Assembly (NCBI GenBank): GCA_027021705.1
Contig: JALUTT010000002.1
Location: 1-64,000 of the forward strand
DNA: 64,000 nucleotides
Source of the DNA: Anaerolineae bacterium
GTDB taxonomy: Bacteria > Chloroflexota > Anaerolineae > S140-20
Direction: 5' to 3'
Part shown: in pieces, positions 7,651 through 41,844 of the stretch
Layout of the letters: each line of letters starts with the position of its first letter
Position numbering within the stretch: position 1 is the stretch's first letter
Made by a program: the position numbers and the translations under genes
The notes under the pieces: generated by a model
Told to the model about the DNA's origin: nothing
The model's input: only the letters and a program-made list of their open reading frames with translations
Databases searched by the model: none

Positions 7651-7652
7651 CG

Positions 7653-25960: not shown

Positions 25961-26226
25961 TCGGGCTTGGAAAGCCCTCCTACCGGGGCGCAGGAGGCCC
26001 TTCAGGGTGTAGGAGGCCCTTCCAGGGCCGAAGATCGGGCTTGGAAAGTCGGGCTTGGAAAGCCCTCCTACAAGGGGGCCACCGGCAGAATCTCTGCGCT
26101 GGCCCCATATCGGGCTTGGAAAGCCCTCCTACCGGGGCGCAGGAGGCCCTTCAGGGCGTAGGAGGCCCTTCCAGGGCCGAAGATCGGGCTTGGAAAGTCG
26201 GGCCTGGAAGGCCCTCCTACAAGGGG
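25961..26226. repeat. GTAG-type REP/BIME cluster, 149-bp tandem duplication
   Basis: TCGGGCTTGGAAAGCCCTCCTAC units and inverted GTAGGAGG units. Blocks start at 25961 and 26110. Confidence 0.8.
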
Positions 26227-27185: not shown

Positions 27186-27382
27186 TACGGACTCCCTCCT
27201 GAGATCACGGCCACCAGCTTGATCTCGTCGCCCTCTTCCAGACGGGTATCCTCGGTGATCAGCTTGCCGTCGCGCACGGGCAGGACCATCTCCGGCGTCA
27301 GCCCGACCTTCTCGATGGCTTCTCGAACGGTGATGCCGGCTTCCACTTCCCACTCCTGATCGCGAAGGGTGATCTTCACCAT
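27185..27382 (-). CDS. ttuB: ThiS/MoaD-family sulfur carrier (TtuB-like)
   Basis: 65-aa beta-grasp protein ending ...VAVISGGSP, coupled to ttuA. Confidence 0.78.
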   Translation of the reverse strand: MVKITLRDQEWEVEAGITVREAIEKVGLTPEMVLPVRDGKLITEDTRLEEGDEIKLVAVISGGSP

Positions 27383-27747: not shown

Positions 27748-28254
27748 TTAGATGAAGATGATCTGGGCGCCTTCGGTCATGTCAATGAAGTCGCTGGCGG
27801 TGACGATGCCCTCGACGCCTTCGACGAAGTCGTCCATCGTCAGGCCCATCATGTCCACCGTCATCTTGCAGGCGTACAGCTTGGCACCACCATCCACCAG
27901 CATCTGCAGGTATTCGCGCACCGGCGGCACGTCCAGGTCCGCGATCTTCTTCTTCAAGAAAGCGGTGGCGAAGGCGGTCATACCCGGCAGGGCGCCCATC
28001 CACTGGGGGATGCCCAGATTGCCGGTGGGCAGACCCATCAGGCTGAACTTGAAGCTGGTGTTGGCGACCGGGGCGATTTCCAGGTGGTCCACGCGCTTCT
28101 TGTTGATGATGTCCAGCCCCCAGAAGGTGAAGAAGATGGTCACGTCCACGCCATTGCCCAGGGCGGCCCAACCCATAATCAGGGCCGGCAAGGCCATGTC
28201 TAGATCGCCCTTGGAGCAGATGAAGGCGATATGGCGGTTCTTTTCCTCAGCCAT
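27748..28254 (-). CDS. DsrE/DsrF/DrsH-like (DsrE2-type) sulfurtransferase
   Basis: IFFTFWGL, YACKMTVDMM, GAQIIFI. Confidence 0.88.
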   Translation of the reverse strand: MAEEKNRHIAFICSKGDLDMALPALIMGWAALGNGVDVTIFFTFWGLDIINKKRVDHLEIAPVANTSFKFSLMGLPTGNLGIPQWMGALPGMTAFATAFLKKKIADLDVPPVREYLQMLVDGGAKLYACKMTVDMMGLTMDDFVEGVEGIVTASDFIDMTEGAQIIFI

Positions 28255-28352
28255 TGTTGCTCTCCTTGATCCTGTGTCGGGAAGACCCCAAGGGTTTCCG
28301 GCCGGAGAACCCTTAGGGCCTTCGGCGGCTCCGAGAAGATCCAGGCGTGCTC

Positions 28353-28670
28353 TTAGACGCAGCCTTGGGGCTTCCCCAGCCCGGCGATGCGGGCGACCTT
28401 CTTGGCCGGGCCTTTGGGGAAGAGCTTGAACAGTTCCTTGGTGGGGATGCCCCCGGCTTTGGTGATCCGCCGCAGGGTTGGCGGTTCCCCCCGCGCCTTG
28501 AAGTCGGCCCGGCAGAACTCGATCACCTTCCAGTGGCGGTCGGTCAACTCCTCGATGCCCTCCTCACGGGCGAGCACTTTGGCGATCTCCGGCGTCCAAT
28601 CGTCGGGGTTGACCATAAACCCCTCATCGTCGAACTCAATGGGCTTCCCAGCGATCTCTCGAACAGCCAT
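28353..28670 (-). CDS. TusE/DsrC-family sulfur relay protein
   Basis: DDEGF, LT..HWKVI, LFPKGP...AGLGKPQGCV. Only the penultimate Cys is kept in the C-terminal arm. Confidence 0.9.
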   Translation of the reverse strand: MAVREIAGKPIEFDDEGFMVNPDDWTPEIAKVLAREEGIEELTDRHWKVIEFCRADFKARGEPPTLRRITKAGGIPTKELFKLFPKGPAKKVARIAGLGKPQGCV

Positions 28671-28730
28671 AGGTTTTCCTCCTTATTGGCTCTATAGCTT
28701 CTTCTGGCTTTATAGCTTACAGCTCTGGAG

Positions 28731-28830
28731 CTTGCCCCCTGCCCCCTGCAACTTGCCCCTTGCTCCTTGCCCCTTGCCCCCTGCCCCTTGCCCCTTGCAA
28801 CTTGCAACTTGCAACTTGCCCCTTGCCCCC
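28731..28830. repeat. Degenerate heptamer tandem array (CCCTTGC/AACTTGC)
   Basis: About 14 consecutive 7-mers. Confidence 0.85.
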
Positions 28831-28832
28831 TC

Positions 28833-29573
28833 TCACTTCGCGCTCTCACCAACGGAGCGGAGCACGAGCAAGGTCTTGGAAAGTCCTCGCCGGACGGCAG
28901 GGTCGTTCAACTGCCGCAAGATGTGCAGCAGCGAGGTATCGGTCGGTTCCTCGGCCCTGGCCGTGACGGCCACCTGACCCATCATCTGCATGATCTCGGG
29001 CTGGGTCATCTCCTTGATGGTCCGCAGGATGAGGACGATGTTGTCGGCCAGTTGGCGCACATCCTCCTCGGTGAAGGAGGTCACGATCCGATCCACCATC
29101 TCCAGACCGCCCTGCAGGAAGACGAAGTACCCCTTCTGCTCCATCTCCTCCAGGCGGCGCATCAGGGTGAGGAAGACCTCCCGCGTGAGCGGGCTGAGGT
29201 CCTGCCACAGGTCCATCAGGCTCTCCAGTTGGTCCAGCATCTGCTCCAGGTTGCGGGTGTTGCGCAACAACCGCTTGAGGAGGTGGAAGATGTCCTCGAT
29301 CTGGACGTAGCCTTCGATCTCCTCCAGTTGCTGGACCGAGAGCCGGAAGATGTCGTTGAAGATGGGCGTCAGGTCGTCCTTGAGCTCATCCCACTCCTGG
29401 CGACGACGGCGCTGCTGGCGGGCTTCCTCGGTCAGAAAGGCGACCTGGGTGGTCAGGGCATCCAGCTTCTGGTGGATCTCCGCCAGGGCTTGAGCCGGGG
29501 GAAGGTCCGCCGCCACGGCCAGAGGGGCTTCTTGGGCTTGCCTGGGGTCTTGTGCCATCTGCCTTGCCTCCAT
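28833..29573 (-). CDS. DUF1641 domain helical protein
   Basis: C-terminal SLLHILRQLNDPAVRRGL. Typical SQR neighbour. Confidence 0.8.
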   Translation of the reverse strand: MEARQMAQDPRQAQEAPLAVAADLPPAQALAEIHQKLDALTTQVAFLTEEARQQRRRRQEWDELKDDLTPIFNDIFRLSVQQLEEIEGYVQIEDIFHLLKRLLRNTRNLEQMLDQLESLMDLWQDLSPLTREVFLTLMRRLEEMEQKGYFVFLQGGLEMVDRIVTSFTEEDVRQLADNIVLILRTIKEMTQPEIMQMMGQVAVTARAEEPTDTSLLHILRQLNDPAVRRGLSKTLLVLRSVGESAK

Positions 29574-29584
29574 CGAAGCGCCTC

Positions 29585-30817
29585 CTACATCCACTTGCCG
29601 GCCATCGTCATCTGCGCCGGGATGGGCATTTCCTTCCCCTTGAGCAGGATGTTCCAGTAGATCCAGCGGAAGAGCATCTTGCCCCAGTGGTTGACCTCCG
29701 ACTCCTGGAGCAGGGAGAAGGGGCCGATGCCCGGCAGGGGATACTTCCCCGGCAGGGGCTCCACGTCGTAGTTGAAGTCAATGAGGATGCCCTTGCCAAA
29801 GCCCGATTCGATGTAGCAGTTGGCGTGGCCGTCGAAAGCGTGGATCATCTCCAGGCCGTCAATGTAGCGCAGGAAGTTCTCGACGAAGACCTCCACGGCG
29901 AAGTGGGCCACCGAACCGGCCTTCGACGTGGGGAGGTTGGCCGCGTCGCCCAGGGCGAAGATGTTGTCGAACTGGGTGGAGAGGAAGGTGTGCTTGTCCA
30001 CCGGCACGTGGTTCAGTTCGTCCCCCAGCCCTGAGCGCTCGATGACGTCCGCGCCCATATTCACCGGCACGGCGACCAGCAGGTCGTAGGGGATCTCCTG
30101 CTCGTCATAAGAGATGAGCAGCTTCTTGTCCGGGTCCACCCGCTCGACGAAGAACTCGGGCACCACGGAGATGTTCTTCTCCTCCAGGATGTTGCCCAGC
30201 AGCTTCGAGGCCCGGGGCTTGGTGAAGGCACCGGGCAAGGGGGTCACCAGGGTCAGTTCCACCCGATCCCGCATGCCCTGGGTGTAGAAGTACCAGTCGG
30301 CCAGCATGATGAACTCCAGGGGGGCGACAGGGCACTTGAAGGGCGTTTCCATGATCGTGACCACCATACGGCCCCCGGACCAAGTGCGCAGGTGACGGGC
30401 CAGAGCCAAGGCTCCCTCGTAGGTGTAGAAGTCGTGGATGGACTTGCGCCATTCGTGTTCGGCCAGGCCGGGCGTCTCCTCGGGCCGAGGATGGGTGCCA
30501 GTGGCGATGATGAGGAAGTCGTAGTTCAGGTAGCGGTTGTCCTTGGCGATGCGCACCCGGTTGTGCTCCGGCTCGATCATCTCGATCTTGGAGACGATCA
30601 TCTCGACGCCCGGTGGGATGAAGTCCCGCTTGGGCTTGATCACGTCGTTCCGACCGTAGATGCCAAAGGGGATGAAGAGGAAGCCGGGCTGATAGTAATG
30701 GGTCTCCTCCTGGTCCACGATGGTGATCTTCCACTCATCGGGGTCCAAGTGGTGGACCAGTTTGTTGACGACCATCGTTCCGGCCGTCCCGGCTCCAAGG
30801 ACCAGTAATCGTTTCAT
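29585..30817 (-). CDS. sqr: Sulfide:quinone oxidoreductase (type III-like)
   Basis: GAGTAG, YQPG, KCPVAPLE, GDA, SKAGS, FDGHANCYIE. Confidence 0.82.
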   Translation of the reverse strand: MKRLLVLGAGTAGTMVVNKLVHHLDPDEWKITIVDQEETHYYQPGFLFIPFGIYGRNDVIKPKRDFIPPGVEMIVSKIEMIEPEHNRVRIAKDNRYLNYDFLIIATGTHPRPEETPGLAEHEWRKSIHDFYTYEGALALARHLRTWSGGRMVVTIMETPFKCPVAPLEFIMLADWYFYTQGMRDRVELTLVTPLPGAFTKPRASKLLGNILEEKNISVVPEFFVERVDPDKKLLISYDEQEIPYDLLVAVPVNMGADVIERSGLGDELNHVPVDKHTFLSTQFDNIFALGDAANLPTSKAGSVAHFAVEVFVENFLRYIDGLEMIHAFDGHANCYIESGFGKGILIDFNYDVEPLPGKYPLPGIGPFSLLQESEVNHWGKMLFRWIYWNILLKGKEMPIPAQMTMAGKWM

Positions 30818-30833
30818 CGTGTTCTCACTCCTC

Positions 30834-31598
30834 CTACAGGTTGGTTAGTTGGGCAATCGTCTTCAGTTTTCCCACCAGGACGCTGCGCTCGGTGGCGATG
30901 TGGGAGATGATGTCGGCGATCCGCTGCAGCAGGGAGAGCACCCACGCGCGCCGGTCCTGCTCCAGATGGTAGACCTCCTCCAGGTGGGGGATCAGGACCT
31001 CCGGCGAGACCTCAAAGGTGGCGGCGATGGCCTCGATCTCCTCCTGAGACGGGGGCCAGCGGTCGGGGGCGATGCCGCCCACGATGACCATCCCTTTCAG
31101 TTCAGAGCCGACGCGTACGAAGGCGCGGGCGCAGAGGAGTCCCAGGTGGCTCCGGGTGAACTTGGGCTCCAGTTCGACCGTAGCAGCCAGGCCCTGCCAT
31201 CCCTCGATGCACTTCTGGAGGGCGTTGGTGTGTTGGTTGATGGCGGAGAAGAGGCCGCACGGATTGCTCAACCGGGTGATGGGGCGGACCTGCATGTCGG
31301 TGATGATCAGCATCAGGCCCAGCGCCTCGGCGAAGGTGTCTTGGATCAGTTGGACGCATTCTAGGGGCAGCAGGGAAGCCAGGTCATCGTCGGCAGGGGG
31401 GGAGGGGGTGAGTTGCAACGAGGGTGTTGAGCCGTTCACCTGGGCCTGAAGCCATTCCTTCACCCGGTCGGCCGGGAAACGCCACAGCCGGCCCACCTTG
31501 ATGGCCGGAATCTGACCGGCCTCGGCCATCCGGTAGATGGTCGAGCGGTCCACCTGGAGCAACTCCTGCATATCCTTCGCGGTCAGCATTTCCGCCAT
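30834..31598 (-). CDS. HTH_17 (excisionase-like) + PocR sensor domain regulator, paralog B
   Basis: MLTAKD...VDRSTIYRMAEAGQIPAIKVGRLWRF, then IQDTFAEALG...ITD..PIT..SNPC. Confidence 0.82.
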   Translation of the reverse strand: MAEMLTAKDMQELLQVDRSTIYRMAEAGQIPAIKVGRLWRFPADRVKEWLQAQVNGSTPSLQLTPSPPADDDLASLLPLECVQLIQDTFAEALGLMLIITDMQVRPITRLSNPCGLFSAINQHTNALQKCIEGWQGLAATVELEPKFTRSHLGLLCARAFVRVGSELKGMVIVGGIAPDRWPPSQEEIEAIAATFEVSPEVLIPHLEEVYHLEQDRRAWVLSLLQRIADIISHIATERSVLVGKLKTIAQLTNL

Positions 31599-31694
31599 AC
31601 TGTCCCTCCCCCAGTTATTGTGATAACCGGAACTTTCGCGCTTATTGTACCCTGCCTTTTTCTGCACGATAAGTGATATATTGCAGGATTCAAA

Positions 31695-31763
31695 CGTGAT
31701 AAGTGTCACAATATGCAGAAAAGGAAACAAGATGCAGAATATGCAAAGTGTGCAGGGCTAGCA
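31695..31763. promoter_or_regulatory. CRP/FNR-like palindrome plus 9-bp-phased GCA direct repeats
   Basis: CGTGA-N6-TCACA at 31695-31710. TGCA/AGCA at 31733, 31742, 31751 and 31760. Confidence 0.55.
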
Positions 31764-31869: not shown

Positions 31870-32355
31870 TCAGCCGAGGGAAGGGGTCAAGCGGGCGTCG
31901 GGGGGAACCGTCTGGGTGCGGTCTATGACCACCTGGCGGTCAGCATTTTGCCGCAGCGCCAGGTGGGGCAGGGGGTGGGCGGCAGGACCGGCCTCCACGG
32001 TCCCGTCGGGAGCGAAGCGGCTGCCGTGGCAGGGGCAGCGGAACCCCTCCGGCGTCTGGTCCACCAGGCAGCCCAGATGGGTGCAGACGGCGGAGATGGC
32101 GAAGTAGCCGTGCTCGTCCCGGGCCAGGTAGGCCCGGGCCGGCGCGATGTAGAGGAGGCCGCCGGGGGCGAGGGAGGAAGCGTCCGGAACCGGGACGGGC
32201 GGCGGCGCTGGCGTGGTGATGGGCGGGGTGAGGAAACGCCAGAGGGCTCGCACCGAGCCCAGGAGGGCGAGGACCAGGCTGCCACCCAGCAGCCGGCCCA
32301 GGAAGGTCCGGCGGCTCATCCCCTCTCTCGTTCGGGAGGCGTCGTGCTCGTTCAT
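31870..32355 (-). CDS. Rieske [2Fe-2S] protein with Tat signal
   Basis: SRRTFLG, CTHLGC, CPCHGS. Confidence 0.93.
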   Translation of the reverse strand: MNEHDASRTREGMSRRTFLGRLLGGSLVLALLGSVRALWRFLTPPITTPAPPPVPVPDASSLAPGGLLYIAPARAYLARDEHGYFAISAVCTHLGCLVDQTPEGFRCPCHGSRFAPDGTVEAGPAAHPLPHLALRQNADRQVVIDRTQTVPPDARLTPSLG

Positions 32356-32370
32356 TGGACTTGCGTTCCG

Positions 32371-33828
32371 TTACGGTGGTGACAGGAACGGCTTCAGCGC
32401 GTCGTCGCGCGGATAGGCGTGACAGGCGTGGCAGTAACGCGATTCCTGCTCGTCGGGTTTCTGTTGGCAGGCGCTCCCGTAGACCAGCGGCACCTCCACC
32501 TCTTCTCCCGACACCTTGAGGGTCTCCACGAAGCGGCCCGGTGCCACCTCTCGGACGGCCCACATCTTCTCTCCCCTAGGGGTGACGACCACCCGGTCGC
32601 CCACCCGGAGCTTCCCGTGGCCGTTGAGTTGGGCCTGGCGCATCGCCGGCTCGTCCTCGGCCGTGATGGGGGCCGTCTGAGGGAGCTCCCACAGCGTGCC
32701 GTGGCAGGTGCGGCACCGGACCACCTGGCTGTCGGTGACGGCATCGGCGATGTGGCCGTTCCCCATCACCTCGTCGCTGGTATGACAGTCTATGCAGTCC
32801 AGCTCCCACTCGCAGAGGGTGAACTGGCCGATGGGCTGGTAGTACTCGGCCAGGCGGCGCTGCTGGCGGGGCAGGAAGTCGGAGAGGGAGGGGCCGGCCG
32901 GCGGCAGGTCCGGGCGTGGCGTGAAGGCCATCGTGCGCAGGGAGTAGTTGCCCCGGTTGTGGCAGTGGTTGCACTGGGAGAAGGGGATGGCGGTGGTCAG
33001 GCGGTGCAGCCGGCCGTGGCCGGGCTCGTCCCGAGGGATGGTGGGGTCCTGGCCCCGGTAGAGGCCGTCGTCGGCGTAGAGGTAGTGGCAGGCGGCACAA
33101 CCGGTGCTGCGGTAGCGGTAAGGCTGGGGCGTCGCCGGCTCCGACAGGTGGCAGCCGCCCTCCAGGCAGGATCGACGGAAGCGGGTGTCTATGGGATGTC
33201 CGGAAGCGGTGACGCCCTGGGCGGCGAGGGCCGGCATCAGCTCGTCGGGGGCGGAGACGGGCAGGGGCTTCAGCGCGGCGACGAAGCCGGGCGGTGGGTT
33301 CGGGTCCTGGGCAGCCATCACCCCGTAGCGCCCCTCCTGGTCGGGCTGAGCGCCGAAGGCGTGGCGCACCAGGGCGATGCCGCCGGCGTAGGTGGCCATC
33401 AGGCTGCGGCCAACCCGCTCCACCCCATCGCGGCCTGCTTGGCCCGTGTGGCTGTGGCAGTTGCAGGCCCGGGCCATCGTCGCGAAGCCCGAGGGGTTGC
33501 GTCCGCCCACCAGCCCGGCGTGGGCCCGCTCCCGGTCCAGGGCCAGCCCGTTGCCACCGTGGCAGCTCACGCAGCCGAAGGTCTCCAGGGGATGGCTGGG
33601 GCTGATCTCCTCGATGCCCACGTGGCAGGTCGTGCACAGCTCCGGCTGGCCTGTCCGCGAGGGGGTGATGGACCGGATGCCCAGAGGGATGGGATCGTCG
33701 GGATGGGCGGCGTTGTAGCGGCGTTGCCATTGCTGCCACTCGGCCTGCCCGGTCCGCCACCAGGCGAAGGCCATCGCCAGGAGCAGAAAGAGGGCAGCTC
33801 CCACCGTCCACCGGACCGGATGCTTCAC
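32371..33828 (-). CDS. Membrane-anchored multiheme cytochrome c
   Basis: Seven CxxCH motifs plus CNCH and CLEGGCH. N-terminal TM helix. Confidence 0.88.
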   Translation of the reverse strand: MKHPVRWTVGAALFLLLAMAFAWWRTGQAEWQQWQRRYNAAHPDDPIPLGIRSITPSRTGQPELCTTCHVGIEEISPSHPLETFGCVSCHGGNGLALDRERAHAGLVGGRNPSGFATMARACNCHSHTGQAGRDGVERVGRSLMATYAGGIALVRHAFGAQPDQEGRYGVMAAQDPNPPPGFVAALKPLPVSAPDELMPALAAQGVTASGHPIDTRFRRSCLEGGCHLSEPATPQPYRYRSTGCAACHYLYADDGLYRGQDPTIPRDEPGHGRLHRLTTAIPFSQCNHCHNRGNYSLRTMAFTPRPDLPPAGPSLSDFLPRQQRRLAEYYQPIGQFTLCEWELDCIDCHTSDEVMGNGHIADAVTDSQVVRCRTCHGTLWELPQTAPITAEDEPAMRQAQLNGHGKLRVGDRVVVTPRGEKMWAVREVAPGRFVETLKVSGEEVEVPLVYGSACQQKPDEQESRYCHACHAYPRDDALKPFLSPP

Positions 33829-34898
33829 GGTATCACCTCCCCCACGGTCAAGACGATGAGGAGCAGGGCGATGAAGGCGAAGAGGGCCTGCACAGGGCCT
33901 CGTCGTCGGTCGAACCAGCGGCCGGCCCGGGCGTGGGGGTCCAGCCAGGGGATGGCGGCCAGGAGGGTGAGCAAGGCCAGCGGGATGCCCACCCCGGCCC
34001 AGAAGGGGGGGAGGTGGCGCAGCAGGCGCTGTACCCAGAGGAAGATCCAGGGAGCCTGGGCCGTGGGGGGAGGGCGGTCCAGGGAGGCAGAGGCACCTAG
34101 AGGGGCCGGGCGGAGGGCTGAGAGCAAGAGGAGCCCACCGGTGATCAGGAGGGCGGCGATGGTCTCCCGCTGGAAGAGGACTTCCTTGGAGACCATCCGG
34201 CGGGGCCGGCCCGCCGGGCGCGGAGGGCGGGAGATGCCGCCGTCCACCCGCAGCCGGAAGAGGTGGTAGACGATGCCGAAGACGACCGGGAGGGTCAAGC
34301 CGATGACGTGCCAGCCGTAGAAGCGGAGCAGGGCCGCCTCCCCGATCTGCCGGTCGCCCACCAGCACCAGGTAGAGGGACCGGCCCAGATGGGGGATCCG
34401 ACCGACCAGGTTGGTGCCCACCAGCAGGGCCCAGTGGGCGCCCTCATCCCAGCGCAACACGTAACCGCTGAAGTCCCAGAGCAGGACGAGGACCAGCAGG
34501 CCGAGCCCGATCAGCCAGTTGAGGCGGCGGGGGCGGGCGTAGGCCCCGGTGAAGACGATGCGGGCCATGTGGAGCGTGACGGCCAGGACGAAGAGCTGGG
34601 CGGCCCAGTAGTGGAGCGCCCGGATCAGGCTGCCAAAGGCCACCACGTCTTCGATCAGGACGATGGAGGCGTGGGCCTCCTCCGGCGTGGGCTGGTAGTA
34701 GAGGGTGAGGAAGAGCCCGGTCAGGATGGTGAGGGTGGCGGCCAGGATGCTGATGCCGCCCAGACCGAAGGTGTAGGTGAGGCGGATGCTCTCGGCCGGG
34801 AGGCGGTCCGGGTGCAGGGCGTAGAGGATAGATTGGTGTCTCTGCCAGAGACGGCGGCGCCGTCGGGTAGAAGTGAGGACGCGCATCATCCTCGTCAT
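33825..34898 (-). CDS. Cytochrome b of a Rieske/cytochrome b complex (b6-like N-part and subunit IV-like C-part in one chain)
   Basis: TFGLGG, HYW...LHMAR, SGYVLRWD, RFYGWH...YH, APWIF. Confidence 0.88.
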   Translation of the reverse strand: MTRMMRVLTSTRRRRRLWQRHQSILYALHPDRLPAESIRLTYTFGLGGISILAATLTILTGLFLTLYYQPTPEEAHASIVLIEDVVAFGSLIRALHYWAAQLFVLAVTLHMARIVFTGAYARPRRLNWLIGLGLLVLVLLWDFSGYVLRWDEGAHWALLVGTNLVGRIPHLGRSLYLVLVGDRQIGEAALLRFYGWHVIGLTLPVVFGIVYHLFRLRVDGGISRPPRPAGRPRRMVSKEVLFQRETIAALLITGGLLLLSALRPAPLGASASLDRPPPTAQAPWIFLWVQRLLRHLPPFWAGVGIPLALLTLLAAIPWLDPHARAGRWFDRRRGPVQALFAFIALLLIVLTVGEVIP

Positions 34899-34933
34899 CG
34901 GATCCCCTCCACAGGCTACCCGAGCCCCTGGGG

Positions 34934-35971
34934 TCAGCGGGCGAAGACGGGTAGGAAGTGGGAGAGCTGCCCGGCGTAGACGAAGACGTAGCGCAGCAGG
35001 AAGCCGCCGATCAGCACCAAGAGGCTGCTGGCCAGGCTCAACTGCCGGCGGTACTTGATGGCCCCCTCCTTCAGGATGATGGGGAAGAGCTCGTACCCCT
35101 CGACGGCCAGGGGGAGCAGCAGGCCCAGCCCGATCACGCCGATCCAGAAGGGGGCGGTGAAAGGCCCTCCCAGGATCAGCTTGAGCGAGGCGGCCGAGCT
35201 CCAGGTGTTCAGCGTCTGGTGCAGGAAGAAGGGGATGATGATGAAGATCTCCAGCACGATCAGCACGGCGTCCACCGAGACCAGCAGGTGCCGTTCGTGC
35301 TCCAGGGCTGCCGGGTCCAGCAGGTCTCCCACCAGGGTGGCGACCAGCAGGAGGAAGGCCACGCCGGTGGACATAGCCGAGAAGAGGAAGAGCTGGGCGA
35401 CCATCGGGGTGTTCCAGAAGGGGCGGGCCGGGATAGCTCCCAGGAGGACGCCGGTGTACATCCCTACGCCCAGGGAGATGGGAAAGCCGACGGCGGCCAG
35501 CACCCCTCGCCCGATGCGCACCGTCCGGGAGGGGATCGGCTGCCAGCGGGCAGGGGCGAGGAGGTCGCCGACGCGCTGGGGAACCCGGATCAGGTTGCGC
35601 AGGGGCCGGGGCAGCCAGAGGACCAGGTAGAGGAGCGAGACGATGACGAAGAGGGTCAGCAGCCAGCTCCCGATGGACATGGGCGAGGTAAACTGGATGG
35701 TGGTGAAGAGCAGCCAGAAGTGCAGAGGGCGTCCCAGGTCGAAGACGAGCATGGCGAGGCCCAACATCAGGGGCCAGGGGGCCAGCAGGGCTCCCAGCCT
35801 GGCGATGCGGCGGTAGCGCCCGCCGCCCAGGTAGGTGGCCAGGCCGGACATGGCGAAGATCCCGGCGCTGATGCCGGCGGTGTAGAGGTAGATGACCACC
35901 AGCAGGCCCCATTCGATCGTCGTCGGTGATCCGCTGTAGCCTTGGAGAAAAGGGTCGTAGGTTGTGGGCAT
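34934..35971 (-). CDS. psrC: NrfD/PsrC membrane anchor subunit
   Basis: WGLLVVIYLY, DLGRP, SPMSIGSW, YTGVLL, RPFWN. Confidence 0.85.
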   Translation of the reverse strand: MPTTYDPFLQGYSGSPTTIEWGLLVVIYLYTAGISAGIFAMSGLATYLGGGRYRRIARLGALLAPWPLMLGLAMLVFDLGRPLHFWLLFTTIQFTSPMSIGSWLLTLFVIVSLLYLVLWLPRPLRNLIRVPQRVGDLLAPARWQPIPSRTVRIGRGVLAAVGFPISLGVGMYTGVLLGAIPARPFWNTPMVAQLFLFSAMSTGVAFLLLVATLVGDLLDPAALEHERHLLVSVDAVLIVLEIFIIIPFFLHQTLNTWSSAASLKLILGGPFTAPFWIGVIGLGLLLPLAVEGYELFPIILKEGAIKYRRQLSLASSLLVLIGGFLLRYVFVYAGQLSHFLPVFAR

Positions 35972-35986
35972 CGTGCACCTGCCTCT

Positions 35987-36550
35987 CTAGTCCACGAGGT
36001 AGAAGATGGCCGGCCCGGTTCCCGCTTCGGGGTAGAGGGTGTAGTGTTGGTGGGTGGCGAGCAGCTTGGAGACCTCGCTCTCGGGGTCGTTGAGGTCGCC
36101 GAAGTGGCGAGCTCCTCCCACGCAGGTCTCCACGCAGGCCGGAGGCTGCCCGGCGTCCAGACGGTGCACGCAGAAGGTGCACTTGTCCACCACGCCCCGC
36201 TCTTCGTCGAAGTAGCGGGCGTCGTAGGGGCAGGCCTGGATGCAGTAGCGGCAGCCGATGCACCGGTCGTAGTCAATGAGCACCAGCCCGTCCTCCCGGC
36301 GGTAGGTCGCGCCGGTGGGGCAGACCCGCTCGCAGGGCGGGTTGGTGCAGTGGTGGCAGTTCTCCGGCGCGAAGAAGAGGCTGACGTCGGGATAGCTCCC
36401 TTTGGTCTGGTGGGCGATCCAGTTGCGGTGATGTCCGATGGGCACGTTGTTCTCGACCGAGCAGGCGACCATACAGGCTTCACAGTCTATGCACCGCTTG
36501 GGCTCCATCACGAAGACCCAGCGGGGCGTCTTCTTCGTCGTATCCGCCAT
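35987..36550 (-). CDS. psrB: 4x[4Fe-4S] electron transfer subunit (PsrB/NrfC)
   Basis: CIDCEAC, CHHCTNPPC..CP, CIGCRYC..ACP, KCTFC. Confidence 0.88.
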   Translation of the reverse strand: MADTTKKTPRWVFVMEPKRCIDCEACMVACSVENNVPIGHHRNWIAHQTKGSYPDVSLFFAPENCHHCTNPPCERVCPTGATYRREDGLVLIDYDRCIGCRYCIQACPYDARYFDEERGVVDKCTFCVHRLDAGQPPACVETCVGGARHFGDLNDPESEVSKLLATHQHYTLYPEAGTGPAIFYLVD

Positions 36551-36563
36551 CGTCGTTCACTCC

Positions 36564-38810
36564 CTACGCTTTGGTGACCTTCACCATCGTCTGGCTGAGG
36601 GCCTGCGAGCCGGTGATGGGGTCGGTGAAGGTGAGGTGCAGGTCCGAATCGCTGGCCCCGGCCCCGTAGGCCGTGCGCAGCCCCTTGCTCAGATGGCCGA
36701 AGCCGGGCGTCATGTAGACGCAGTCGGGGCGGATCCGTTCGGTCACGTGGGCCCGGGTCTTCACCCGACCGGCGGCGCTCTCCACCCACACTTCGTCGCC
36801 GTCGGCGATCCCCCGGGCGGCGGCGGCCTTGGGGTGGATCCAGAGGGGGTTGTCCGGCACCCGCTCGTGGAGCAGCCGGTTGTTGTGGGTGGCGAACTGG
36901 GTGTGCTGGGCCACCTTGCCCGTCAGCAGGTAGAACTGGCCTTCAAAGGGCTCCGGCGGCGCTTCCCAGGTGGGCACGGCGGGAAAGCCGGCGTTGCGCA
37001 GCACCTCGCTGGCCAGCTCGATCTTGCCGCTGGGGGTGTTCCAGCTCAGCGTAGGCTTCCCCTCCGCCTCGGCCGGGGCGGTTTCCGGCAGCCGGTAGAA
37101 GCCCCGCTCCTTCAGCTCCTCCAGCGTGATCTCCAGCGGGGCGAGTTGTTGCCGCAGGTAGTCCTCCTCGTCCTCGTAGGGGAAGTAGTCGCCCAGGCCC
37201 AGCCGCTCGCCCAGTTGCTTGAAGATCCACAAGCCCGACCGGCTCTCCCCCAGAGGCTCGACGGCCGGCTGGCGGATGAAGACGATGCCGTCCACCACCG
37301 TCAGTGGGTCGTACCGCTCCAGGTAGCTGGCCTCGGGCAGGACCACGTCGCTGAACCAGGCGGTGTCGTTCATCGCGATGTCAATGGTGACGATGAACTC
37401 CAGCTTGCTGAAGGCTTCCAGTGTCTTGCGACGCTCGGGCAGGGCGTTGACCGGGTTCTGGCGGTAGATGAACCAGCCCTTGGCCTGGTAGGGTTCGCCC
37501 CGCAGGATGTTGTCGCGGATCTCCTGGAAGACGCCCAGCTTCAGGGGCACCAGCGGGTACTTCCAGGGCACGCCGTCCAGCCGCAGGGCGGCCACGCGCG
37601 GGTAGGGGGGGTGGGGGAGGGAGGCCAGGCCGGCCCCTTCCTCGCCGGCGGCCGGCTGGAGGCCGCCGGGCTGCCCCCAGTTGCCCACCAGCGCGTTCAG
37701 GATGGCGATGGCCCGCTCCGTCTGGAAGGAGTTGAGGAAGTTGCTGGTGCGCCAGTTGGGGTGGGCGAAGGCGTGGGGGGCTGCCAGGGCGAACTCGTGG
37801 GCGATCCGCCGGATGGTCGAGGCCGGGATCTCCGTCTTGGTGGCGGCCCACTCCGGCGTGTAGTCGCGCACCGCCTCCTTGAGCTCGTCGAAGCCCACGG
37901 TGTAGGCTTCCACGAAGGCGTGGTCGTAGAGGTCGTTGTAGATGATCTCGTGGATCAGCGCCAGGTGGAAGGCCAGGTCGGTCCCCGGCTTGATGGGCAG
38001 CCATTCCGTGGCCTTGGCTGCCGTCTTGGTGAAGCGGGGGTCCAGCACAACGACCTTGGCCCCCCGGGCGATGGCCGCCACCAGCGCCTGGCTCTCCGAG
38101 TTGGAGATGGCCTCCAGCAGGTTGCGGCCCGTGTAGATGATGTACTGGGCAGCGCTGTAGTCGCGGCCCGGCTCCTGCACCCCGTAGGTGAGCAGGTTGG
38201 CGACGATCATCGCGTTGAAGCAGAGGGAGCGCTGGGTCCCGTAGTTGGGCGAGCCGTAGGCTTTCAGCAAGTTCTCGAAAACGGGCTGGAGCAGGTTGTG
38301 GGTGGTGCTGAAGATCATCGCCTCGGGGCCGTATTTTTCCTTGATCTCCAGCATTCGCTCCGCCACGTAGTCCAGGGCTTGCTCCCAGGAGACGCGCTGC
38401 CACTTGCCGCTGCCCCGCTCGCCGGCCCGGATCATCGGGTAGAGCAGGCGGTCGGGGTCGTAGAGGGTGGCCACCCCCGCCTGCCCTCGGGGGCAGAGCA
38501 TCCCGTTGGAGTGGGGGTGATGGGGGTTGCCGTCCAGCTTGTAGACCTTCCCGTCCTTGACCTTGGCGACCAGGCCGCAGCGCCAGACGCACTGCTCGCA
38601 CAAAGAGTAGACCTCGCGGTCGAAGACGACGGGCGGGAGCGGTTTCAGTCCACCGTCCGGCGAGAGGGACGGCTCCAAGGAGAGGCGGGGGAGCCGCAGC
38701 CCCAGCCCCAGGGCGGCCAGGGTCCCGGCGCTCACCCCTAGGAAAGTCCGCCGGCTGATGGGGCGGTCCAACACCGACGGTTCGGGTGCTTCACGTCCTT
38801 TCTTGCTCAT
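36564..38810 (-). CDS. psrA: Polysulfide/thiosulfate reductase-type molybdopterin catalytic subunit
   Basis: Tat motif SRRTFLG, CEQCVWRC...C [4Fe-4S] motif, SLCF Cys ligand, KPGTD, DVVLPEASYLER. Confidence 0.82.
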   Translation of the reverse strand: MSKKGREAPEPSVLDRPISRRTFLGVSAGTLAALGLGLRLPRLSLEPSLSPDGGLKPLPPVVFDREVYSLCEQCVWRCGLVAKVKDGKVYKLDGNPHHPHSNGMLCPRGQAGVATLYDPDRLLYPMIRAGERGSGKWQRVSWEQALDYVAERMLEIKEKYGPEAMIFSTTHNLLQPVFENLLKAYGSPNYGTQRSLCFNAMIVANLLTYGVQEPGRDYSAAQYIIYTGRNLLEAISNSESQALVAAIARGAKVVVLDPRFTKTAAKATEWLPIKPGTDLAFHLALIHEIIYNDLYDHAFVEAYTVGFDELKEAVRDYTPEWAATKTEIPASTIRRIAHEFALAAPHAFAHPNWRTSNFLNSFQTERAIAILNALVGNWGQPGGLQPAAGEEGAGLASLPHPPYPRVAALRLDGVPWKYPLVPLKLGVFQEIRDNILRGEPYQAKGWFIYRQNPVNALPERRKTLEAFSKLEFIVTIDIAMNDTAWFSDVVLPEASYLERYDPLTVVDGIVFIRQPAVEPLGESRSGLWIFKQLGERLGLGDYFPYEDEEDYLRQQLAPLEITLEELKERGFYRLPETAPAEAEGKPTLSWNTPSGKIELASEVLRNAGFPAVPTWEAPPEPFEGQFYLLTGKVAQHTQFATHNNRLLHERVPDNPLWIHPKAAAARGIADGDEVWVESAAGRVKTRAHVTERIRPDCVYMTPGFGHLSKGLRTAYGAGASDSDLHLTFTDPITGSQALSQTMVKVTKA

Positions 38811-38832
38811 CTCGCGTTTCCCCTTTGGCGTT

Positions 38833-39411
38833 TTACGCTTTCTGTCCTGTGCTCCCCACCTGGTCGGCCTTCGCCCTGGGGTCGCCCGTCTTGCCCAGGA
38901 CGTAGAAGAGGATCAGCGTGATCTCCGTGAACAGGATGATCAGCAACCAGGGGTTGGCGTGGATCAGGTCTGCCAGGACGACGCTACCCAGGTTGGCCAG
39001 GGCCGAGATCTTGGGGAAGACCTGCGGGTAGGTCAGGCCGTAGAGGATGGCCCCGACCAGGAAGCCCAACATCCCGGGGATCAGGTAGTCCAGGTTGCCT
39101 TGGCCGCCACCGGCGACGCAGGTTCCCGGTCAGAAGCCCGCCAGGGCCATGCCCACGCCGAAGATCAGCCCGCCCACCAGGTTGCCGACGACGTAGGTGG
39201 GGGTGATTTTCATCAGTGTGATCACGCCCAGGGCTTGCAGGCCGTAGAGGCCGATCATCCCCACGACCAGGGCGGACATCATGAACTTGAGCACGGCCAG
39301 GTCCGTGAAGCGGAAGACGTTGACGATCTTGGAGTACTTGGTCAGGCCGGCCTTCTGCAGCAGCCAGCCGAAGCAGAAGCCGAAGATCAGCGCGAGCAGG
39401 TAGTCGAGCAT
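38833..39411 (-). CDS. YeeE/YedE thiosulfate-transporter-family protein, probable selenoprotein (UGA=Sec at 39130-39132)
   Basis: Two in-frame ORFs joined by one TGA in GF-U-PGT (the G-x-C-P-G-T motif), followed by a SECIS-like hairpin. Confidence 0.85.
39090..39129 (-). promoter_or_regulatory. Putative bacterial SECIS element
   Basis: Directly 3' of UGA: CCGGG/CCTGG lower stem, TGC/GCA, GTCGCC/GGCGGC upper stem, apical loop GGT starting at +19. Confidence 0.6.
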
Positions 39412-39421
39412 CGTATTCCCC

Positions 39422-39958
39422 CTAGAACTTGCTGCCGTAGAGGATCATCGCGGTCACGATGCCGGAGACGAACATACCGGCGATGAAGATGAAGGCGGCG
39501 GGAGCCAGGGCGATCCCCCCGGCGATGGCCAGCCCGCTGGTGCAGCCGCCGGCGATGCCTGCGCCGTACTCCAGGATGATGCCGCCGACGAAGGCGGCCA
39601 CCCAGCGCTTCCAGCGGCTGGGCCCGAAGACCCGCTTCCACTGGGGGTCGGGCACCGGGTCCAGTTTGAAGGTGTCGGAGAGCTTGGAGGCGGCGAAGGC
39701 CCCGAAGAAGGCACCGACCAGCAGGATCACCTGCCAGGTGATGCCCGGCGGCATGACGAACTTGAAGTAGAGGTTCTTCTCCACCAGGTCGGGTGCCACC
39801 GCCTTCAGGATGAGCCCGCCGATGTTCTCGAAGGAGCCGGAGGCTCCGATGGCCTGGTGGCTGAGGGCGACGATGAGGACGGCGACGATCCCCAGGCCGG
39901 CCCCCGACCAGATGGGGGACCACTCTTCTTTCCTCAGAGCGCGGATGATCGCGTTCAC
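39422..39958 (-). CDS. YeeE/YedE family protein (Cys form)
   Basis: IGASG and GAGIAGGCTSG motifs, multi-TM. Confidence 0.88.
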   Translation of the reverse strand: MNAIIRALRKEEWSPIWSGAGLGIVAVLIVALSHQAIGASGSFENIGGLILKAVAPDLVEKNLYFKFVMPPGITWQVILLVGAFFGAFAASKLSDTFKLDPVPDPQWKRVFGPSRWKRWVAAFVGGIILEYGAGIAGGCTSGLAIAGGIALAPAAFIFIAGMFVSGIVTAMILYGSKF

Positions 39959-39977
39959 CTTTCCCTCCCTTTCTCTC

Positions 39978-40973
39978 CTATGAGAGCTCCTTGCGCAGCG
40001 CCATCAGCAACTCCACCTCCTCAGGGTCCAGGCGGGTGACGGCGGAGAGCAGGTTCAAATCCAGACGGGAGACCGCTTTGAGCACCTGCGGCCCCAGGGG
40101 GCGGTTGCTCAGCAGCCGGGCGATGGCTTCTAAAGTGGCGGGATCGGCCTCGGCCAGGGTGGCGATGACCTCCGCCAGCGCTGGCGGTTCGGCGGTGGGG
40201 GCCGGCTGCCCGGTGGGGTAGGGCCTTACCTCGCCAGGGGATGGGATGGACGGGGGCGCAGCGGGGGCACCGGCCAGGGCCGCCTGCATCTCCATCAGCA
40301 TGTTGGCCCGCCACCAGGCGGCGAGGCGGCTGGGCACCTGCTCGAAGTGCCACACCAGGCCGAGGAAGACCAGGGCCAGCAGGAGGATGAGGGCGATGAG
40401 CACCAGGTTGCTGACGTTGGTCCTGGGCTGTTCGGCGGCCTGGCTCTCGGCGTAGACCTTGTTCAGGTCAATGATCTCGCCTCCCGACGGGGCGCTCACC
40501 GGACCGGCTGCGGCCGGGGCGGCGGGGGCCTCCGAAGAGGGCGCCGAGGGGGCCGATGGGGCTTCGCCGGCCGGAGGGGCTCCACCGCCGCCGCCGGTGC
40601 CCACTTCAACGCCCAGCACGCCGGCGTACTGCTGGGCCAGGTCCATGTAGTCGTTGGGGTGGCACGACTGACAACTGGCCTGGACGTCGCCCAAGGGGGC
40701 GACCAGCCCCTGGTGGGCGGCTTCCTTGTCCGTGGCCTGCACGTCGCCGGCGTGGCAGAATTCGCAGAAATCGCCGAAGGCGTGGGCCGTGTGCCACTCC
40801 CCCTCGTTGTTCACCGGGTCCTGCCCTTGCACCTCGTGGCAGTTCTTGCAGGAGGAGACCGAGGACCCGCACTGGGCTACTGCCTGTCGCTCGTTCAGCC
40901 CCCCCATCAGCACCAGGCTGAGGGCGGCCAGGGCGAGCAGCAGGCCCACCCGTATCGGTATGCGACGGTTCAT
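39978..40973 (-). CDS. Tri-heme cytochrome c with linker, TM helix and C-terminal helical tail
   Basis: Signal peptide, CKNCH, CEFCH, CQSCH, Ala/Pro linker, TM segment. Confidence 0.8.
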   Translation of the reverse strand: MNRRIPIRVGLLLALAALSLVLMGGLNERQAVAQCGSSVSSCKNCHEVQGQDPVNNEGEWHTAHAFGDFCEFCHAGDVQATDKEAAHQGLVAPLGDVQASCQSCHPNDYMDLAQQYAGVLGVEVGTGGGGGAPPAGEAPSAPSAPSSEAPAAPAAAGPVSAPSGGEIIDLNKVYAESQAAEQPRTNVSNLVLIALILLLALVFLGLVWHFEQVPSRLAAWWRANMLMEMQAALAGAPAAPPSIPSPGEVRPYPTGQPAPTAEPPALAEVIATLAEADPATLEAIARLLSNRPLGPQVLKAVSRLDLNLLSAVTRLDPEEVELLMALRKELS

Positions 40974-41009
40974 GCTTCCCTCCATCCAACTCCGTGCGAT
41001 GGGTGACGG

Positions 41010-41741
41010 TTACGATCTTGCCGAAAGGCCACGCTCCGTGGCGAGGTGGGACATGATGTTGGCGATGCGTTGCAGCAAGGTGAGCACCCAGGCTCGCCGG
41101 TCCGCTTCCAGGTGGAAGACCTCCGTCAGGTGGGCGGCCAACGCCTCTGGGGGAACGTCGAACGTGGTGGCGATCGCCCGGAGGGCCTCGTCGGAGGGGG
41201 GCCAGTCGTCGGGGGCAACGCCTCCCAGGAGCACCATGCCCTTCAACTCGTGGCCAACGCGGATCAAGGCCCGGGCGCAGAGGAGGCCGGAGGTCGTGCG
41301 CGTGAACTGCGGCTCCAGGTCAATGATGGTCGCCAGATCGTGCCAGTCCTGGATGCAGTGGGAGAGGGCGTTGGGGTTCTGGACGATGATCTCCAGGAAG
41401 CCGCAGAGGTTGCTGAAGCGGGTGATGGGGTGCCCCTCCAGATCGGTGATGACCAGGGTCACGCCCAGCGCCTCGGCGAAGGTGTCCTGGATCAGCTGGA
41501 CGCACTCCAGAGGCAGCAGGGAGGCCAGGTCGCTCTGGGAGATCAGGGCATCGGCGGGAAGGGATGGGGCCGAAGTCTCGACCCGGCTCTGGAGCCACCG
41601 CTTGACCAGGTTAGCGGGGAAGCGCCACTGCTTGCCCACTTTGATGGCCGGGATCTGACCGGCCTCGGCCATCCGATAGATGGTCGAGCGGTCCACCTGG
41701 AGCAGCGCTTGCAGGTCCTTGGCGGTCAGCATCTCGTCCAT
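41010..41741 (-). CDS. HTH_17 + PocR regulator, paralog A
   Basis: Highly similar to 30834-31598 (VDRSTIYRMAEAGQIPAIKVG; DLASLLPLECVQLIQDTFAEALG). Confidence 0.82.
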   Translation of the reverse strand: MDEMLTAKDLQALLQVDRSTIYRMAEAGQIPAIKVGKQWRFPANLVKRWLQSRVETSAPSLPADALISQSDLASLLPLECVQLIQDTFAEALGVTLVITDLEGHPITRFSNLCGFLEIIVQNPNALSHCIQDWHDLATIIDLEPQFTRTTSGLLCARALIRVGHELKGMVLLGGVAPDDWPPSDEALRAIATTFDVPPEALAAHLTEVFHLEADRRAWVLTLLQRIANIMSHLATERGLSARS

Positions 41742-41844
41742 AGGCTTCCTCGTTCCGTGGGTCGAATATGTGAAAGTTTGAACGTGCGTGCCCATCTTAG
41801 TCCGTTTCCCCGTCTCCAGCAAGTGACGTATGGCAGCGCCAACA

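Follow-up and report, generated by a model that had tools for sequence, protein, structure and literature searches.

The window analysed here, a 64,000-nucleotide stretch of DNA (contig JALUTT010000002.1, positions 1 to 64,000) from the genome assembly of an Anaerolineae bacterium in the phylum Chloroflexota (GCA_027021705.1), encodes a molybdoenzyme of the polysulfide reductase (Psr) type together with a Rieske/cytochrome b pair and two c-type cytochromes. The genes concerned form one run of ten on the minus strand (Table 1). Read 5' to 3', they encode a PocR regulator, a trihaem cytochrome c, two YeeE proteins resembling the C-terminal and the N-terminal half of that family, PsrA, PsrB, PsrC, a cytochrome b, a multihaem cytochrome c and a Rieske protein. 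Successive genes are spaced by 24, 19, 10, 22, 13, 15, -19, -4 and 15 nucleotides (nt), and the G+C content at third codon positions is 0.87-0.97 across the ten frames. A consensus scan found no strong terminator within the run; over 13.8 kb it gave 8 weak sites, compared with 5.6 +/- 2.6 in shuffled sequences, and the sole strong hairpin with a T-run lies at 42580-42552, upstream of the regulator gene. Judged by this layout, the ten genes are one operon. A preliminary description of the window had claimed a single packed minus-strand run, and this is confirmed, with all ten genes in the place given and gaps of -19 to 24 nt. DNA near-identical to the window occurs in metagenome runs from hydrothermal vents (8 DNA rows from 4 studies, one row being a possible source run and the vent runs otherwise coming from three studies), and among the sequencing runs listed no RNA run contained it.

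Table 1. Coordinates of the operon and of the adjoining sulfur unit in the window.
Feature	Positions	Strand	Length (amino acids)	Match or motif
Ten-gene run	31870-41822	-		Open frames with family matches, except the trihaem cytochrome
Regulator 1, HTH_17 (MerR/excisionase-type) and PocR sensory domain	41010-41741/41822	-		PocR 83.8 bits, HTH_17 55 bits
Trihaem c-type cytochrome, first structural gene	39978-40985	-	335	Three CxxCH in translation
YeeE/YedE half-protein, C-terminal-half-like	39422-39958	-	178	Pfam Sulf_transp 63.3 bits, profile 169-309 of 310; motif GGCTSG
YeeE/YedE half-protein, N-terminal-half-like	38833-39411	-	192	Sulf_transp 72.5 bits with TGA read as U
PsrA, PsrA/PhsA/SrrA-clade catalytic subunit	36564-38810	-	748	Pfam Molybdopterin 175.8 bits, Molybdop_Fe4S4, Molydop_binding
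PsrB, four-cluster ferredoxin subunit, without signal peptide	35987-36550	-	187	Pfam Fer4_11 109.6 bits
PsrC, NrfD-family membrane quinone-site subunit	34934-35971	-	345	Pfam NrfD 181.5 bits, profile 6-310 of 313
Cytochrome b, b6-like part fused to subunit-IV/ExtQ-like part	33825-34952	-	375	Cytochrome_B 131.5 bits
Membrane-anchored multihaem cytochrome c, ExtM-like, N-terminal membrane helix	32371-33828	-	485	NCBIfam ExtM
bc-type Rieske [2Fe-2S] protein	31870-32355	-	161	Pfam Rieske 41 bits
Regulator 2, PocR/HTH	30834-31598/31730	-		67% identity to regulator 1
Type III sulfide:quinone reductase, Cys form	29585-30817	-		NF049943 SQR_III 644.2 bits, cut-off of 525 exceeded
DUF1641 protein	28833-29594	-		Pfam DUF1641
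DsrC-like protein	28353-28670	-		Pfam DsrC 121.3 bits
DsrE-like protein	27748-28254	-		Pfam DrsE_2 112 bits

Components of the operon

PsrA bears the twin-arginine motif SRRTFL, from which export by the twin-arginine translocation (Tat) pathway is predicted. Its closest solved relative is PsrA of Thermus thermophilus (2vpw_A, 504.9 bits over residues 64-748). In the alignment, C71, C74, C78 and C106 fall on the FS0 cysteines of that chain and Cys197 falls on its Cys173, which we take to be the molybdenum (Mo) ligand. The Tat signal and the cysteine ligand that had been claimed for this protein are thus both found and, because the FS0 site is retained along with them, PsrA is probably catalytic. 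The best NCBIfam model for PsrA is PhsA (NF012032), whose score of 620.8 bits is under the cut-off of 694. By these matches the protein belongs to the Psr/Phs/Srr clade and is not an equivalog of Salmonella PhsA. The translation of PsrB shows four Cys groups, and its NCBIfam matches are TtrB at 217.2 bits and DsrO at 205.6 bits, the latter above the cut-off of 200.

The sole NCBIfam match of the multihaem cytochrome is ExtM (159.7 bits, E 8.7e-47, profile 15-391 of 599, cut-off 800). A cytochrome of seven to nine haems had been expected, and the protein is multihaem as foreseen; its count is amended to seven canonical CxxCH, a CX4CH and a CXCH, and in relatives the CXCH is itself CX4CH. All nine motifs are invariant in alignments of 8 and of 19 relatives. 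A profile search of the PDB found no sequence relatives of this cytochrome, and its AlphaFold2 model, built from 19 sequences, has a mean predicted local distance difference test (pLDDT) of 49.3 and a predicted template modelling score of 0.38, values too low for searching by fold. The trihaem cytochrome, which matched no Pfam family, begins with a signal peptide, followed by three CxxCH motifs, an Ala/Pro-rich linker of low complexity, one C-terminal transmembrane (TM) helix and a short cytoplasmic tail. In an alignment with 7 relatives its three CxxCH motifs do not vary, nor do three other His and an additional Cys39. The extra Cys stands in A-Q-C-G-S, directly past the predicted signal peptide and 7 residues ahead of the first CxxCH, and the short cytoplasmic tail past the TM helix is likewise conserved in relatives.

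The cytochrome b gene overlaps psrC by 19 nt and the multihaem gene by 4 nt. A cytochrome b is present as first described, with the amendment that it is a fusion: its first 240 residues match ExtP at 224.8 bits (cut-off 290) and its last 110 match ExtQ at 41.8 bits (cut-off 150). Cytochrom_B_C reaches 19.5 bits, just below its cut-off of 20.7, and the C-terminal part is thus weakly supported. The four His of haems bL and bH align with those of cytochrome b6, and the position of the haem-ci Cys is occupied by Gly. In a quick tree of 53 rows, 41 cytochrome-linked cytochrome b genes form a lineage apart from 12 others (SH-aLRT 98), among which are the two other cytochrome b genes of the window's genome. 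The Rieske protein has the boxes CTHLGC ... CPCHGS, a Tat motif and an N-terminal TM anchor, and an alignment shows the same hydrophobic anchor in the other clusters that include cytochrome b. Its best NCBIfam matches are Rieske subunits of b6f and bc1 complexes, all below their cut-offs, and the ExtO model gave no match to it at E up to 0.01. The place of a cytochrome c1, cytochrome f or dihaem c subunit is taken by the ExtM-like cytochrome with its nine haem motifs. Another bc-type complex of the same genome, on contig C96 (L030 4320-5999), joins its cytochrome b and a dihaem cytochrome c domain in one protein, with a 446-residue DUF4405 protein upstream.

The N-half-like YeeE gene contains an in-frame TGA at 39130-39132, which replaces the Cys of a G-[FY]-C-P-G-T motif and yields G-F-U-P-G-T. 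At 55 related loci the same codon is TGA in 19 and TGC or TGT in 32, with the motif not recognisable in the remaining 4. The TGA versions have in common a small hairpin about 10 nt downstream of the UGA (alifold), and the window's genome encodes tRNA-Sec and selB, the latter above its cut-off. From this comparison the codon is a genuine selenocysteine (Sec)/Cys pair, and the Sec-containing YeeE of the preliminary description is borne out. Sec-containing YeeE/YedE proteins are already counted among the prokaryotic selenoproteins, with the motif GUxSG (PMC13188914). Unlike those listed proteins, the pair in the window is split in two genes and has its Sec in the N-half-like piece, in the motif G-[FY]-U-P-G-T. 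Through Sulf_transp the pair shares family membership with the YeeE/TsuA thiosulfate transporters, and the alternation of Sec and Cys in a YeeE pore would be a natural experiment on cargo handling in this transporter family. Two other molybdopterin-enzyme genes of the genome have one in-frame TGA each (C5:63091-64851 and C56:110079-110846), and judging by their reading frames they may encode Sec-containing enzymes of the formate dehydrogenase type.

Linkage of psrABC to the cytochromes among relatives

A scan of all prokaryotes with an alignment of the multihaem cytochrome, taking one genome per species, returned 422 relatives, and the best 80 loci were examined. All of these 80 lie in metagenome-assembled genomes of Chloroflexota (Anaerolineae, Caldilineaceae, Ardenticatenaceae, Aggregatilineales and Thermoflexales). 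Neighbouring genes were scored by tblastn with the proteins of the window and with a second set from a relative. The resulting counts describe kin rather than independent cases, rest on our own gene calls and tblastn thresholds, and concern loci picked by the cytochrome itself. The psrA gene is present at 52 of the 80 loci. Where the multihaem gene is flanked by 9 kb or more on each side, as it is at 39 loci, psrA and the trihaem gene were each found at 33 and the YeeE genes at 34, with a Rieske gene nearby at 31 and a cytochrome b gene nearby at 19. The psr half and the cytochrome half of the cluster are colinear in some relatives and divergent or convergent in others, which indicates that their linkage has outlasted rearrangement. 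A protein atlas gave weak leads beyond the phylum, to Thermodesulfobacteriota, Nitrospinota and Bacteroidota (scores 0.89-0.91).

The same association is seen when the count starts from PsrA. PsrA orthologues (62-67% identity) were found in seven of 401 genomes sampled from the phylum, and all seven have the cytochrome. Three genomes with only more distant PsrA homologues (37-40%) are without the cytochrome and have no YeeE gene within 1.5 kb on each side. The cytochrome itself was found in 9 of the 401 genomes, counting the window's own. Five, belonging to another family and to four genera, preserve the full order of trihaem cytochrome, YeeE, YeeE, psrA, psrB, NrfD, cytochrome b, multihaem cytochrome and Rieske at 34-68% protein identity. 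One genome (G362) has a DsrE-like gene, cytochrome b, the multihaem gene and the Rieske gene on one contig and YeeE-YeeE-psrA-psrB on another, and one (G211) has the cytochrome alone. Where a cytochrome locus has no psrA within 10 kb, it adjoins FmdE-like, MobA or MobB genes, which belong to the handling of the Mo cofactor. On these gene-order comparisons, the linkage between psrA and the cytochrome is not due to chance. The neighbourhood search thus upholds the earlier claim that the module is joined to psrABC: the two are not unlinked in relatives.

Within the related clusters, the trihaem cytochrome, the split YeeE pair, PsrA and PsrB, a membrane anchor and the ExtM-like cytochrome are, as far as the aligned loci go, the constant core. 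The anchor itself is of several kinds: an NrfD protein of the window's type, a second type of NrfD protein (~395 residues) or, at some loci, a protein of the cytochrome b561 type. Accessory genes in 87 related loci comprise a dihaem cytochrome c lipoprotein at 20, a multi-domain rhodanese at 18, an FmdE-like gene at 35 and a NarJ/TorD-like gene at 5. The dihaem lipoprotein, a class-I cytochrome c of ~225-240 residues, stands between psrC and cytochrome b in the nearest relatives (for example L032:7500-8195, L034:5998-6681 and 7143-7871, L035:8138-8827, and 17 further loci). Nine of the ten that were inspected end in Gly-Cys, mostly as ...NPEGGC, and a tblastn search found no homologue in the window's genome.

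These counts bear on whether the two halves of the operon work together at all. The PsrABC set of the operon is complete and, by what is established for the Psr of Thermus and Wolinella, needs no extra partner. The operon might by the same token encode two independent modules under a shared regulon, namely a quinol-dependent PsrABC with its YeeE proteins and a separate menaquinol:cytochrome c reductase, serving for example the quinol of a sulfide:quinone reductase (SQR), with no direct exchange of electrons between them. Several relatives are organised as such a division would predict: cytochrome b, multihaem and Rieske genes occur without psrA within 10 kb at 6 of the 39 fully flanked loci, the two halves sit on different contigs in G362, and the divergent and convergent arrangements amount to separate transcripts in many relatives. 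Against this stand the co-occurrence in all seven genomes counted from PsrA and the presence of psrA at 33 of the 39 loci despite the rearrangements. Moreover, in lineages whose clusters have no cytochrome b, the Rieske, multihaem cytochrome, FmdE-like and MobA genes form one operon, which ties the cytochrome to a molybdoenzyme rather than to a general bc complex, and the genomes already own other complete bc complexes. We therefore regard full independence of the modules as unlikely.

Direction and route of electron flow

In textbook Psr and Phs systems, electrons pass directly from menaquinol through PsrC, and little or no energy is conserved. Because the cytochromes are constant here although a plain PsrABC needs none, the enzyme would exchange electrons with the haem chain. 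Our tentative reading, the likeliest of those weighed here although we give it less than even odds, is that the operon encodes a periplasm-facing enzyme of the Psr/Phs/Srr clade, acting on a sulfur or selenium substrate and built into a c-type cytochrome chain; both the substrate and the direction of flow are what we infer. Menaquinol would be oxidised by a Q-cycle at the quinol oxidation (Qo) site of the operon's own ExtP/Q-like Rieske/cytochrome b, building proton-motive force, and the Rieske cluster would pass the high-potential electron on to the nine-haem cytochrome, which is anchored in the membrane and is a putative substitute for cytochrome c1 or f. The latter, presumed to be docked on PsrB/PsrC, would feed the iron-sulfur wire of PsrB and the Mo centre of PsrA. 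PsrC would act as anchor and as a second, direct entry for quinol. The two YeeE pieces, whose pore position would hold Sec or Cys, could carry the sulfur or selenium substrate or product across the membrane, and the trihaem cytochrome could connect the complex to a wider cytochrome pool. A Rieske centre cannot drive the reduction of polysulfide or thiosulfate, so the acceptor at the end of this candidate route, from menaquinol over Rieske/cytochrome b and the nine-haem cytochrome to PsrBA, would be a chalcogen compound of middle or high potential: tetrathionate, another polythionate or selenite. The route as a whole is held as tentatively as the reading to which it belongs.

A tree of PsrA would not settle the substrate, because trees mix PsrA, PhsA and SrrA with one another (PMC12949373, PMC10100899, PMC13047784). 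Three precedents accord with the reductive reading: a Psr homologue reduces tetrathionate (PMC12949373), the Geobacter ext genes are linked to selenite and tellurite (PMC5877670), and the haloarchaeal nitrate reductase is encoded with a Rieske/cytochrome b pair on which it depends (PMC4683180). The clade members characterised in Table 1 of PMC10100899 are all reductases.

The docking step can be set beside a second locus and a structural prediction. On contig C22 of the same genome, a complex of the QrcB/QrcC/NrfD/ActD type has an ExtM-like cytochrome of 871 residues (28% identical, E 8e-33) 1.8 kb upstream, separated from it by a TPR gene and a small open frame. The genome therefore places a cytochrome of this kind close to an NrfD-type complex twice. 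For the operon of the window, the complex modelling proposed in the preliminary description placed the cytochrome against PsrB/PsrC, and did so with a weak pass: PsrB, PsrC and cytochrome residues 30-485 scored 0.48 (runs 0.47, 0.48 and 0.55), with 0.01 as the best of three for the controls, including 0.01 when PsrC was replaced. The runs share at least 82% of their contacts, and the pLDDT of the partners is at least 78. The mark used is reached by 116 of 157 solved complexes and by 2 of 215 mismatches, and passes at 0.60 or less comprise 18 of the 157 solved complexes and both passing mismatches. By the prediction tool's own account, so weak a pass is wrong more often than not, except where the guess was already a likely one. 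The score may in part reflect likeness to solved complexes of alternative complex III (ACIII) and Qrc. With the model and this analogy in view, we think that the nine-haem protein would sit on PsrB/PsrC as ActA or QrcA does on its own partners. The C22 cluster (L029 2605-12327), for its part, has separate QrcB-like and QrcC-like genes, NrfD, ActD and a triple class-I cytochrome c.

Several observations weigh against the proposed wiring. At 27 of the 52 psrA-bearing loci, the multihaem gene has no cytochrome b gene as its neighbour. In five genomes with such clusters that were searched whole, every cytochrome b (31-38% identity to the query) has a Rieske protein and a c-type cytochrome of its own, and in the quick tree these genes fall outside the cluster-linked lineage. 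The Rieske proteins of the clusters without cytochrome b are also without the hydrophobic membrane anchor. Because so many relatives have no dedicated cytochrome b, input from a Q-cycle is not constant in the family. In addition, the operon encodes a complete NrfD quinol site that would be redundant under this wiring, the matches to ExtM, ExtP, ExtQ and PhsA are all below curated cut-offs, and the neighbouring SQR, DsrC-like and DsrE-like genes, together with the ArsR-type regulators of relatives, fit the handling of sulfide or sulfane sulfur at least equally well. Finally, haem-copper oxidases occur in 5 of 5 cluster-bearing genomes tested and cytochrome bd in 4 of 5, and an oxidative chain would be possible in them.

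The objection from cytochrome b also narrows what had first been claimed. Two quinone-reactive modules, NrfD and cytochrome b, are present in the window as stated; as a constant of the family they do not hold, and it is the cytochromes that are the constant partners. By comparison of the loci, the Rieske/cytochrome b pair as found in the window is one of two common states. The Rieske proteins of the other state (for example L062:11158-11589 and L071 ~11206-11556) keep the start MNRRDFL and have a conserved end, ...DRFIA.

The second unit (27748-31730, minus strand), which lies directly downstream of the operon, supplies the neighbours just named. Its regulator and that of the operon have four Cys in common as well as their 67% identity, and the likely start of the operon's regulator is the ATG at 41741; the unit is probably co-regulated with the operon. 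The model matched by the SQR is named 'selenoprotein subtype', and the protein in the window has the Cys form. A TtuA-like PP-loop gene follows this unit at 26217-27353.

Read with these neighbours, the chain could run in the oxidative direction. A Psr-like dehydrogenase of sulfide, polysulfide or thiosulfate would pass electrons by way of PsrB and PsrC to menaquinone, to which the SQR would add its own, and the Rieske/cytochrome b pair would reoxidise the quinol towards the nine-haem and trihaem cytochromes and a terminal oxidase, with YeeE importing sulfur for a DsrE/DsrC relay. The position of the SQR III, DUF1641, DsrC-like and DsrE-like genes under a paralogous regulator suits such a chain, as do the DsrE-like gene that adjoins cytochrome b, multihaem and Rieske genes in G362, an SQR gene beside the module at one related locus (L044), the oxidases of the tested genomes and the ACIII-like complex of the window's own. 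The dihaem cytochrome of the nearest relatives points the same way, since its ...GGC end presumably recalls a sulfur-carrier arm. A model for cable bacteria similarly leads from sulfur oxidation over quinone and Rieske/cytochrome b to periplasmic cytochromes (PMC13047784). Against this reading, none of the characterised enzymes of the PsrA/PhsA/SrrA clade listed in Table 1 of PMC10100899 and of PMC7331816 is an oxidase, the SQR adjacency is seen at only 1 of the 80 related loci, and the survey of oxidases does not discriminate the direction of flow. The window's genome, at 94.9% completeness, yielded neither dsrA nor soxB, a result that does not decide the direction. Taken together, we hold the oxidative chain to be rather unlikely, though it deserves to be weighed beside the reductive wiring.

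The presence of two quinone-reactive membrane subunits, whose overlapping genes lie in one operon, invites a more radical scheme, in which PsrABC, the nine-haem cytochrome and Rieske/cytochrome b would form one membrane supercomplex with two quinone sites. Working in a bifurcating or looped manner, it would send one electron to a low-potential sulfur site on PsrA and the other down the haem chain. If this held, polysulfide or thiosulfate respiration would conserve energy by a new bioenergetic principle, and the complex would be a living intermediate between catalytic Psr and ACIII/Qrc; we judge it quite improbable. The corresponding mechanism, quinol bifurcation or a closed two-site quinone loop, would draw one electron uphill to sulfur at Psr while the other ran downhill, by way of the multihaem cytochrome, to an acceptor of high potential, and would in this way make reduction of polysulfide or thiosulfate feasible or energy-conserving. 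A bifurcating role has reportedly been proposed for the unusual Rieske/cytochrome b complexes of anammox bacteria. The mechanism is nonetheless very improbable here: no structural path leads from the b haems to PsrB, which lies in the periplasm, and cytochrome b is missing in half of the related clusters.

Relation to known systems

The PsrABC part of the operon resembles that of Thermus thermophilus (PDB 2VPW-2VPZ) in its Tat-exported PsrA with FS0 and a Mo-ligand Cys, its four-cluster PsrB and its NrfD-type PsrC. When the comparison is widened to the PsrA/PhsA/SrrA lineage, represented by Wolinella Psr, Salmonella Phs, Bacillus selenitireducens Srr and the Psr homologue of Shewanella ANA-3, the operon of the window stands apart by the addition of the trihaem cytochrome, the split YeeE pair, Rieske/cytochrome b and the nine-haem cytochrome. 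The srr operons are said to be marked by the extra genes srrE, srrD and srrF (PMC12949373). A Pfam scan found no rhodanese or chaperone gene in the operon described here, and among the 87 related loci a rhodanese occurs at 18 and a NarJ/TorD-like gene at 5.

Kinship with the extHIJKLMNOPQS cluster of Geobacter sulfurreducens, to which the preliminary description had pointed, is upheld. The multihaem cytochrome finds its best NCBIfam match in ExtM, and the two parts of cytochrome b find theirs in ExtP and ExtQ, although every match is below threshold (159.7/800, 224.8/290 and 41.8/150 bits) and the ExtO model is unmatched. Both clusters include a Rieske/cytochrome b pair, a large multihaem cytochrome and a selenoprotein, and the rhodanese genes at 18 of the 87 related loci are a further likeness. 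In Geobacter, the ext cluster, with ExtM, the Rieske protein ExtO, the cytochrome b ExtP and the membrane protein ExtQ, has been tied to selenite and tellurite reduction (PMC5877670). It differs from the cluster of the window in several respects: ExtP and ExtQ are fused here, the cytochrome has 9 haem motifs in 485 residues where ExtM has 12 haems in 68 kDa (PMC5877670), and no porin, ExtKL, ExtN or ExtS is seen in the window. Pfam scans of the called genes from 19993 to 55026 revealed no porin or rhodanese families, a survey in which models specific to ExtI, ExtH and ExtKL were not searched by name. The Geobacter ext cluster, moreover, is without a molybdoenzyme and is itself without biochemical characterisation.

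This likeness raises the question of whether the cytochromes serve extracellular or mineral electron transfer, to Fe(III), Mn(IV) or electrodes, with Psr being incidental. Growth on Fe(III) raises the abundance of the Ext proteins in Geobacter (PMC5877670), and the cytochromes of relatives give weak Pfam matches of the MtrC/MtrF type. Such a role appears extremely improbable, in view of the Pfam scans above, which gave no match to a porin or outer-membrane conduit, and of the specific, tight linkage, which is to a molybdoenzyme, YeeE and Mo-cofactor genes.

Two further groups of enzymes provide conceptual precedent. The periplasm-facing nitrate reductase (Nar) of haloarchaea is encoded with a Rieske protein and a cytochrome b and is antimycin-sensitive (PMC4683180, citing Martinez-Espinosa 2007). 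With NarB (Rieske) and NarC (cytochrome b), it likewise combines a Tat-exported enzyme of the DMSO reductase family with a Rieske/cytochrome b pair and is thought to be fed by a Q-cycle (PMC4683180); in Methanoperedens, Nar occurs with Rieske/cytochrome b and multihaem cytochromes as well. These enzymes are Asp-ligated whereas the Psr clade is Cys-ligated, and they are without an NrfD quinol subunit and without YeeE; their bc parts are likened here by description only. ACIII (ActABCDEF) and QrcABCD offer the other parallel: in them, a multihaem cytochrome is bound to an iron-sulfur subunit like PsrB and to a subunit of the NrfD type. For the operon of the window such an attachment is predicted, weakly, by the docking model. 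ActB1 and QrcB have lost their cofactor, whereas PsrA of the window keeps the Tat signal, FS0 and the Mo-ligand Cys; ActD, ActE and ActF are absent from the operon, and Rieske/cytochrome b is extra. We considered and rejected the identification of the operon itself as an ACIII, since the catalytic features of PsrA are retained and an ACIII/Qrc-like cluster is present elsewhere in the genome, on C22.

No description of a Psr-type enzyme with Rieske/cytochrome b or with an ExtM-like module, in Chloroflexota or elsewhere, was found in open-access full text, and within that literature the suggestion of an undescribed system stands. The parts are all of known families and have conceptual precedent in Nar-NarBC and in ACIII/Qrc; it is their combination and its substrate that are without description in the open-access text found. 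A Psr enzyme with its own Rieske/cytochrome b and haem wire would show how the respiration of sulfur and selenium compounds becomes electrogenic. Such an enzyme would add a catalytic member to the kin of ACIII and Qrc, and would give the ExtM/ExtP-type module of Geobacter a defined enzymatic partner. Because the module is common in uncultured Chloroflexota of the class Anaerolineae, and because DNA of the window is found in vent metagenomes, it may matter for the cycling of sulfur intermediates in hydrothermal-vent habitats.

One neighbour outside the two units recurs elsewhere. A YwiC-like membrane protein gene (48211-49023, with a weak UbiA match) lies ~6 kb from the cytochrome b, multihaem and Rieske genes of the window, and a YwiC-like gene is also found near these three genes in several relatives (L024:3772-4605; L082, L094 and L097).

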